Assembly (NCBI RefSeq): GCF_988242995.1
Contig: NZ_OZ547043.1
Strand: one strand, 5' to 3'
Length of the DNA: 64,000 nt
This document shows, one piece after another, positions 32,038-32,067 of the stretch. Made by a program: the position numbers and the translations under genes. The notes under the pieces are model-generated. The model saw only the letters and a list, made by a program, of their open reading frames with translations, did no database searches and was not told the origin of the DNA. Within the stretch, counting starts at the first letter, position 1. Each line of letters opens with the position of its first letter.

Positions 32038-32067
32038 CGCGAGGGCGCAGGCCGAATCAGATGCCTT
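32038..32067 (+). other. Stem-loop downstream of the 517-aa gene (possible terminator or REP-like element)
   Basis: attcggcct-(12 nt)-aggccgaat, 9-bp perfect stem; no U-tract. Confidence 0.35.

Follow-up and report, generated by a model that had tools for sequence, protein, structure and literature searches.

A REP-like hairpin in the 3′ untranslated region of a nucleotidase gene within the strain-variable metL–metF segment of Escherichia coli

The REP elements of E. coli are extragenic, and about 40% of them lie between tandem genes (bioRxiv 10.64898/2026.03.23.713779). REP325 is both a partly Rho-dependent terminator and an mRNA stabiliser, and the effects of REPs in general depend on context (bioRxiv 10.64898/2026.03.23.713779). 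The GTAG motif that precedes the REP palindrome is essential for TnpA(REP), any substitution in it abolishing binding and cleavage (PMC8266576). The locus considered here, between metL and metF, has itself been catalogued as 'GR 31, metL..metF' of ExPEC, in a longer form that carries a Tsx-like gene and three nucleotidase ORFs (PMC12928451). We analysed a 64-kb stretch of DNA (the window) whose source is E. coli, and describe in it a REP-like element that sits in the 3′ untranslated region of a 517-aa nucleotidase gene upstream of metF (Table 1).

Part of this element is a hairpin whose arms, ATTCGGCCTACGC and GCGCAGGCCGAAT, are 13 nt each and complementary at 12 of 13 positions around a 4-nt loop, the stem consisting of 9 bp, an A/C mismatch and a further 3 bp. 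A preliminary description of this DNA had reported a perfect 9-bp inverted repeat (attcggcct...aggccgaat) at 32038–32067, 66 bp after the 517-aa gene. The repeat is present, at 32028–32036 and 32049–32057, the reported position being shifted by +10; it forms part of the longer 13-nt arms, and the first stem base lies 56 nt, not 66, beyond the last base of the stop codon. Perfect 9-bp inverted repeats number 27 in the 64-kb window against 3.6 expected from a first-order Markov simulation, and such a repeat is by itself unremarkable. Arms of 13 nt with at most one mismatch are found at only three loci in the 64 kb, where 0.55 would be expected; besides this hairpin, these comprise two T-tailed terminators, which follow katG and the gene whose end is at 24273.

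Table 1. Coordinates of the hairpin, the repeat parts that form it and the surrounding features of the metL–metF locus in the window.
Feature	Position	Strand	Description
Hairpin	32028–32057	+	Left arm 32028–32040; loop GAGG 32041–32044; right arm 32045–32057
Putative inverted REP tail	32025–32038	−	13-nt, …ATTCGGCCTAC; AGTATTCGGCCTAC, on the − strand GTAGGCCGAATACT; copy of the GTAG-proximal end
Linker	32039–32046	.	8 nt, GCGAGGGC; ends pair (GC/GC), centre forms the loop
Putative decayed REP-like unit	32047–32087	+	GCAG-GCCGAAT-CA-GATGC-CTTA-GCATC-ACC-ATCCGGT-GGCA; GTAG of the family changed to GCAG
517-aa metallophosphatase/5′-nucleotidase gene	30418–31971	+	UshA-like domains; annotated as bifunctional metallophosphatase/5′-nucleotidase
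376-aa gene	29155–30285	−	Divergent from the nucleotidase gene; 3′ end overlaps the last 37 nt of metL
metL 3′ hairpin	29206–29264, with U-rich run 29265–29273 (UUGUUUAUG)	+	Begins 15 nt after the metL stop
Strain-variable segment	29193–32202	.	3,010 bp; K-12-type genomes have an unrelated 197 bp with its own REP
Common metF upstream region	32203–32352	+	98% identical to K-12; palindromic AGACGTCT-centred repeat at 32275–32308

Folded as RNA within a 56-nt context, the hairpin gives −21.5 kcal/mol (z = −2.6) on the + strand and −27.7 kcal/mol (z = −4.6) on the − strand, where the fold is stronger because the A/C mismatch turns into a G·U pair. Such a difference might mean that the element acts on − strand RNA, terminating antisense or convergent transcripts or stabilising their 3′ ends, as a leftover of convergent-gene arrangements, and a − strand gene does converge on the nucleotidase gene in Escherichia sp. 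MOD1-EC7003 (L009), in Pseudocitrobacter (L011) and at most Citrobacter and Klebsiella loci. From the element to metF, however, the window encodes nothing on the − strand, metF itself being on the + strand, and the asymmetry is inconsistent: the corresponding hairpin of a divergent Escherichia (L010) is fully Watson–Crick, and that of L011 has one wobble favouring each strand. Owing to this inconsistency among variants we discarded the G·U versus A/C asymmetry as a guide to the strand of action, and we regard a − strand function as very improbable.

As a GC-rich stem-loop downstream of a gene the hairpin has one hallmark of an intrinsic terminator, whereas the T-tract expected directly 3′ of the stem is absent, as the preliminary description had observed: the following bases are CAGATGCC, and the nearest T-run (32095–32099) is 37 nt away. 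A terminator scan of 29000–32500 found no terminator-like site from the nucleotidase stop to metF, a scan that also misses a Citrobacter hairpin followed by a T-run (9-nt loop). An Rfam covariance-model search of the same interval at E ≤ 10 gave as its sole match a chance snoRNA elsewhere. The hairpin is the only strong structure in the 380-nt 3′ region after the nucleotidase gene. Small ORFs of 23–58 aa occur on both strands of the spacer; they are without support as genes, and we took them as chance.

Comparison with other E. coli genomes places the hairpin in DNA that varies between strains. The interval 28900–32500 matches 5,425 of 5,426 complete E. coli genomes, 1,837 of which cover at least 80% of it while the remainder match metL and metF only. 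Alignment of the locus shows homology with K-12-type genomes stopping at 29192, one base past the metL stop, and restarting at 32203; the hairpin therefore lies inside the variable segment, 146 bp from its right end. The 231 bp between the nucleotidase stop and this junction (31972–32202) occur once each in 1,832 of the 5,426 genomes, and the two insert genes or their remnants were present in all eight of the E. coli-type loci with the 231-bp segment that were examined. Compared base by base in one K-12-type genome, the 197-bp spacer that separates metL from metF contains neither the hairpin sequence nor similarity to 31972–32202. It has three hairpins of its own, including a terminator-like one 20 nt after metL, together with a genuine REP that matches many K-12 REPs at 82–88% identity. 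The AGACGTCT-centred repeat, which we take to be MetJ boxes, belongs to the 150 bp before metF that K-12-type genomes share; the preliminary description had taken the ~380 bp before metF to look otherwise like native metF upstream DNA, which is true of these 150 bp only.

These comparisons bear directly on the earlier proposal that foreign DNA, entering at the metL stop, moved the original metL terminator downstream, where it would now be seen as the hairpin. The extra DNA does begin where that proposal put it, since the left junction with K-12-type genomes falls exactly at the metL stop, and a related REP-type hairpin stands right after metL in one Citrobacter species. Alignment with K-12 downstream of metL, on which the preliminary description would have had the matter judged, nevertheless finds the hairpin sequence absent from the insert-less K-12-type locus examined, whose spacer has different hairpins; this is the outcome that the preliminary description had itself specified as refuting the proposal. 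The hairpin's position 146 bp within the variable segment also speaks against the proposal, as do the 1,832 genomes with the segment, every examined carrier of which has the insert genes or remnants of them, and the ancestral synteny that the "insert" probably represents (see below). Moreover, metL is followed by a hairpin and U-rich run of its own. In a 100-nt context this structure folds to −41.1 kcal/mol (z = −4.5), as well as which none of 200 shuffles folded, and it falls within the antisense coding region of the convergent 376-aa gene. We consider it a candidate for, and likely, the metL/metBL terminator of the window allele. Because metL thus has a strong 3′ structure of its own, no displaced terminator is needed, and we regard the displacement reading as refuted.

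How the two alleles arose was approached from gene order. We scanned the nucleotidase protein against one genome per species and mapped MetL, the 376-aa protein, the nucleotidase and MetF onto the loci found. Nucleotidase relatives across Enterobacteriaceae are 87–97% identical, and a recurring order was seen: metL, the 376-aa gene on the opposite strand, the nucleotidase gene, zero to two more genes, and metF. This order is found in many species of Citrobacter, in Klebsiella, Kosakonia, Phytobacter and Salmonella enterica subsp. arizonae, as well as in Pseudocitrobacter, Superficieibacter and E. whittamii and, in part, Kluyvera. The 376-aa gene is the conserved divergent partner of the nucleotidase gene, with 58–92% identity where metL–metF synteny holds; its protein gave no Pfam match, only a weak sub-threshold IS1-type zinc-binding motif at residues 74–105. 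Since the order is common to many genera, the K-12 type is most likely a loss, and the "insert" is most likely the ancestral enterobacterial arrangement. No target-site duplications or integrase were seen in the junction sequences at the segment borders. A simple deletion between two REPs was considered as the source of the K-12 allele and is unsupported, the 197 bp of K-12 having no similarity to either flank beyond its own REP.

Several further features of these loci were recorded. In Pseudocitrobacter vendiensis (L011 4001–5506) the nucleotidase is 97% identical to that of the window, as against only 93–94% for MetL and MetF, which hints at a recent exchange of the metL–metF segment between genera. 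Escherichia sp., E. albertii, Enterobacter and Citrobacter have loci (L012, L015, L034, L036, L038 and L039) at which two to three nucleotidase paralogues, ~50–72% identical to the query, stand in tandem arrays and no metL or metF was detected. In several Citrobacter and Superficieibacter genomes the convergent spacer between metL and the 376-aa gene contains REP units that point either way and often have part of a tail in inverse orientation (L020, L030, L032 and L022, ~2650–2745); in E. coli, where these two genes overlap, there is no REP. At the K-12-type locus (L001 1930–2064, − strand), RefSeq annotates a hypothetical protein of 44 aa (WP_000660586.1) on the antisense strand upstream of metF. 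Because the 5′ portion of its gene falls within the 197 bp specific to K-12, it cannot be conserved in insert-bearing strains; the protein is probably spurious.

The segment itself has more than one form in E. coli. Strain AR_0017 (L006 1–3500) carries a longer variant, with a second, divergent nucleotidase paralogue upstream (62% identity) and a version of the 376-aa gene that is 77% identical; matches H8–H10 of the 28900–32500 search also show a longer variant. This form is probably the 7.8-kb 'GR 31' of ExPEC strain BEN2908 (PMC12928451). Strain HS-02 (L004 2730–3877) has a third spacer allele of 1,147 bp with no annotated gene, in which 111 bp remain of the nucleotidase gene and 21 bp of that for the 376-aa protein, beside ~540 bp of other sequence. 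It keeps an intact hairpin region at 84% identity, an identity band that holds 17 genomes, and looks like a decay intermediate.

The nature of the hairpin emerges from relatives in which it is better preserved. When the 231-bp segment was compared by blastn with all the loci retrieved, window 32027–32082 matched Citrobacter sp. FP75 (L022; E = 6e-6). The FP75 element stands directly after the metL stop and reads TTATCCGGCCTAC-ACGATCC-GTAGGCCGGATAAGATGCGTAAGCATCACCGCCCGGCA, so that a REP unit (GTAG, then an imperfect palindrome) follows a short repeat, in inverse orientation, of its own GTAG-proximal end. After the nucleotidase gene, L010 has ATTTGGCCTAC-GCGAGAAC-GTAGGCCAAATAAGATGCTGTAGCATCGCCATCCAGTGGCA and L011 has CTTATCCGGCCTAT-GCACAAAC-GTAGGCCGAATAAGATATGTGTGCATCGCCATCCGGCG, both with GTAG kept. 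L010, L011 and FP75 share one architecture: a short inverted tail, a linker of 7–10 nt and a REP unit beginning GTAGGCCG[G/A]ATAAG, a unit type also written GTAGGCCG[G/A]ATAAGATGC…. The window element aligns with these relatives position by position, as ATTCGGCCTAC-GCGAGGGC-GCAGGCCGAATCAGATGCCTTAGCATCACCATCCGGTGGCA, and its unit resembles the window's own REP at 53075–53111 (GTAGGTCGGATAAGATGCGTAAGCATCGCATCCGACA). L009 has a more diverged palindrome at the same position. On this alignment the hairpin is best described as what appear to be two REP tails pairing across the 8-nt linker.

A REP profile (nhmmer) was built from 19 REPs of K-12 loci and the window with a strict GTAGG[CT]C[GT]GAT seed, which the element under study does not satisfy; K-12 REPs were harvested by pattern, the MG1655 RefSeq record having no repeat features in the regions fetched. 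The canonical REPs of the window at 53075, 5684 and 5648 scored 27–34 bits, the FP75 element 20.4 bits, the L010 element 12.8 bits, the REP of the K-12 metL–metF spacer 12.5 bits and the L011 element 11.1 bits; of the window's copy the profile registered the left tail only, at 1.3 bits. The unit at 32047–32087 was not found (E > 10 over the window). REP ancestry of the window's copy therefore rests on the chain through its better-preserved relatives.

Two of the canonical loci just named have features of their own. The BIME at 5615–5718 is canonical, with a Z2-type REP, a 35-nt AT-rich linker, presumably an IHF-type L motif, and an inverted Y-type REP with a 1-nt deletion (GTAGGCC-GATAAGG). 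In the ppc–argE spacer (53075–53125) the window has one REP and an orphan GGCCTAC tail, where K-12 (L088 16347–16692) has four REP units; this is another case of REP copy-number variation between strains.

Set against the anatomy of the family, the window element shows a mixture of retained and lost characters. It is extragenic, between the co-directional nucleotidase gene and metF, and has the tail-to-tail arrangement and linker of a BIME, with a left partner of only 13 nt. Tail-to-tail pairs in the sampled K-12 loci have recognisable REP units on both sides. Beyond its 13-nt tail the left arm is not REP-like, its similarity to the right-hand unit being no better than that of shuffles (p = 0.15; 0.36 in L010), and we rejected the idea that it is a full decayed inverted REP. 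In place of GTAG before the palindrome there is GCAG (32047–32050), while the inverted tail keeps CTAC (32035–32038). By inspection a palindrome, CCGAAT..GATGC-CTTA-GCATC..ATCCGG, can pair with an internal loop, but the minimum-energy fold spends the GCCGAAT segment on the tail-to-tail hairpin and not on the unit's own palindrome. The variant lacks the high copy number of a REP, occurring once in the window (at up to three mismatches) and once per genome, counts that may miss diverged copies too short to reach BLAST significance. We file the element as a putative decayed and truncated derivative of the REP/BIME family, not a canonical member, on the support of its same-position relatives. The hairpin is to this extent an ordinary, unannotated element of a known repeat family, and the preliminary description's second thought, a REP-like or RNA-stability element, is the reading that these relatives favour.

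A REP origin would also be compatible with an element that acts as DNA, as a duplex or cruciform: a site for gyrase, IHF or Pol I, or a recombination hot spot at rearrangement breakpoints. Between the nucleotidase gene and metF there are 0–2 extra genes that differ by lineage, and the sequences of L009 and L011 depart from that of the window at or just after the REP-like element, as such a hot spot might predict; yet no IHF-type L linker like that of the BIME at 5615–5718 is present. Roles of REPs and BIMEs in genome structuring and plasticity have been reported (PMC8266576), and a model REP showed no role in chromosome compaction (bioRxiv 10.64898/2026.03.23.713779). A DNA-level element is in our judgement unlikely.

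We then asked of the hairpin whether its structure is maintained. Six E. coli-type alleles that differ by up to 16% in their flanks and spacers have identical stems, the sole change being in the loop (GAGG to GAGA); these alleles include HS-02, where the nucleotidase gene is destroyed, and the same spacer contains other runs of 25–30 invariant bases. L010 differs from the window at five positions: one C–G pair is T–A through changes on both sides, the A/C mismatch is an A–T pair, and two changes at the stem tip enlarge the loop. For the 30-nt element by itself, the two versions compare as −18.2 against −19.8 kcal/mol, a preservation of the fold that is equalled by 8–12% of random sets of five transitions and by 2% of random substitutions of any type. 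The fold-preserving changes of L010 are thus only suggestive of structural maintenance. Among six variants, 82% of cells are paired as against 24–37% in slid controls, and three pairs change on both sides, a covariation score reached by 4 of 500 shuffles in a set of six sequences of which one comes from a different locus and in which both arms derive from one family consensus. Evidence for selection on the hairpin structure is modest, and the arms may homogenise by template switching without selection.

The main rival of a 3′-end role is that the hairpin is a functionless relic: a dead REP fragment in young E. coli alleles, its symmetry kept by template switching or gene conversion between the arms. 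The change of GTAG to GCAG and the decay of the REP body below profile detection are what a relic would show, as is a hairpin that stays unchanged in HS-02 although the upstream gene has gone; the invariant runs elsewhere in the spacer, and a structure-preservation test against L010 that reached only p ~0.1, fit it too. A relic would not, however, be expected to supply the one strong structure of a 380-nt 3′ region that lacks an intrinsic terminator, at a position where every other genus keeps some strong hairpin after the nucleotidase gene, nor does it account well for three pairs that covary across variants. We give the relic reading a substantial but minority weight.

The reading that we lean towards, with somewhat better than even confidence, is that the hairpin is the central tail-to-tail junction of a truncated, decayed REP/BIME-type repeat in the nucleotidase 3′ untranslated region, where it would have a role at the 3′ end of the mRNA. 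In such a repeat the inverted REP tail of 13 nt (…ATTCGGCCTAC) would pair, across the linker of 8 nt, with the tail of the REP-like unit (GCAGGCCGAATCAGATGCCTTAGCATCACCATCCGGTGGCA) to give a 13-bp GC-rich hairpin. The substitution of GCAG for GTAG should abolish recognition by TnpA(REP), which would make the element a fixed relic rather than a mobile copy, and the element belongs to a metL–metF segment that is most likely the ancestral arrangement, lost by K-12-type strains. Transcribed at the end of the nucleotidase mRNA, the hairpin would block its 3′-to-5′ exonucleolytic decay, as described for other E. coli REPs, and partial, possibly Rho-assisted termination may limit read-through towards the metF promoter ~200 nt downstream. 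As a side effect this promoter, within the common region, would be shielded from read-through. We propose this mode of action because of the likeness of the element to REP325, the model REP of 3′ untranslated regions. Other genera have a different GC-rich hairpin 10–20 nt after the same nucleotidase stop, followed in Citrobacter by a T-run, which suggests that some 3′ structure is generally required by the nucleotidase gene, the REP-derived hairpin being the one available in E. coli. Should the proposed role be correct, a dead repeat would serve as a gene's only 3′-end structure and would shield a neighbouring promoter, that of metF, in keeping with recent work on REPs as context-dependent 3′-UTR regulators. 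For the annotation of the locus, the stem-loop is no displaced metL terminator, the extra genes are most likely no recent insertion, and the hairpin is a probable, unannotated decayed REP-type element.

A bolder idea, which we raise as speculation and think rather doubtful, is that a "hairpin-capped REP", in which the GTAG end is joined to a short (11–14 nt) inverted copy of itself to give a perfect stem of 12–14 bp, is a distinct module under selection. Such a module would recur at gene 3′ ends near metL and the nucleotidase gene in Escherichia, Pseudocitrobacter and Citrobacter, would show compensatory evolution, and would outlive the loss of the transposase recognition motif. It could arise by fold-back synthesis or by TnpA(REP) cleavage and rejoining, and would represent a dead mobile repeat exapted as an RNA 3′-end or insulator structure.

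How close the window element comes to described systems can now be stated. Like the group-2 REPs of E. coli (palindromic units Y, Z1 and Z2) and the BIMEs, in which a linker separates a REP from an inverted REP, it is extragenic at a gene 3′ end, has a short linker between opposed tails of the CTAC/GTAG type, contains the GGCCG-AT-AG…ATCCGG core, could form an imperfect palindrome with an internal bulge, and is close to the GTAGGTCGGATAAGATGCGTAAGCATCGCATCCGACA subtype at 53075. Unlike them it has GCAG for GTAG and GAATCA for GATAAG, is missed by the K-12 REP profile, and is a single-copy variant whose partner unit is cut to 13 nt and whose linker measures 8 nt. An intrinsic terminator likewise has a GC-rich stem-loop after a stop codon, and the strength of the stem is comparable to that of the true terminators at 24285 and 35763, whereas the U-tract is missing here. 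The K-12 metL–metF spacer offers a counterpart at the same position, laid out as a terminator-like hairpin, a REP and a second hairpin; its REP-family unit has the same orientation (TAGGCCGGATTAAGCGTTTACGACGAATCCGGCA, 12.5 bits), but beyond family-level REP similarity there is no homology and the flanks are unrelated. REP325 of the yjdM–yjdN operon and the window element are both REP-type hairpins between co-directional genes, past the first stop and without a canonical U-tract. REP325, however, is a multi-unit canonical array with experimental support, whereas the window has one decayed unit and a tail, and here the downstream gene has its own promoter.
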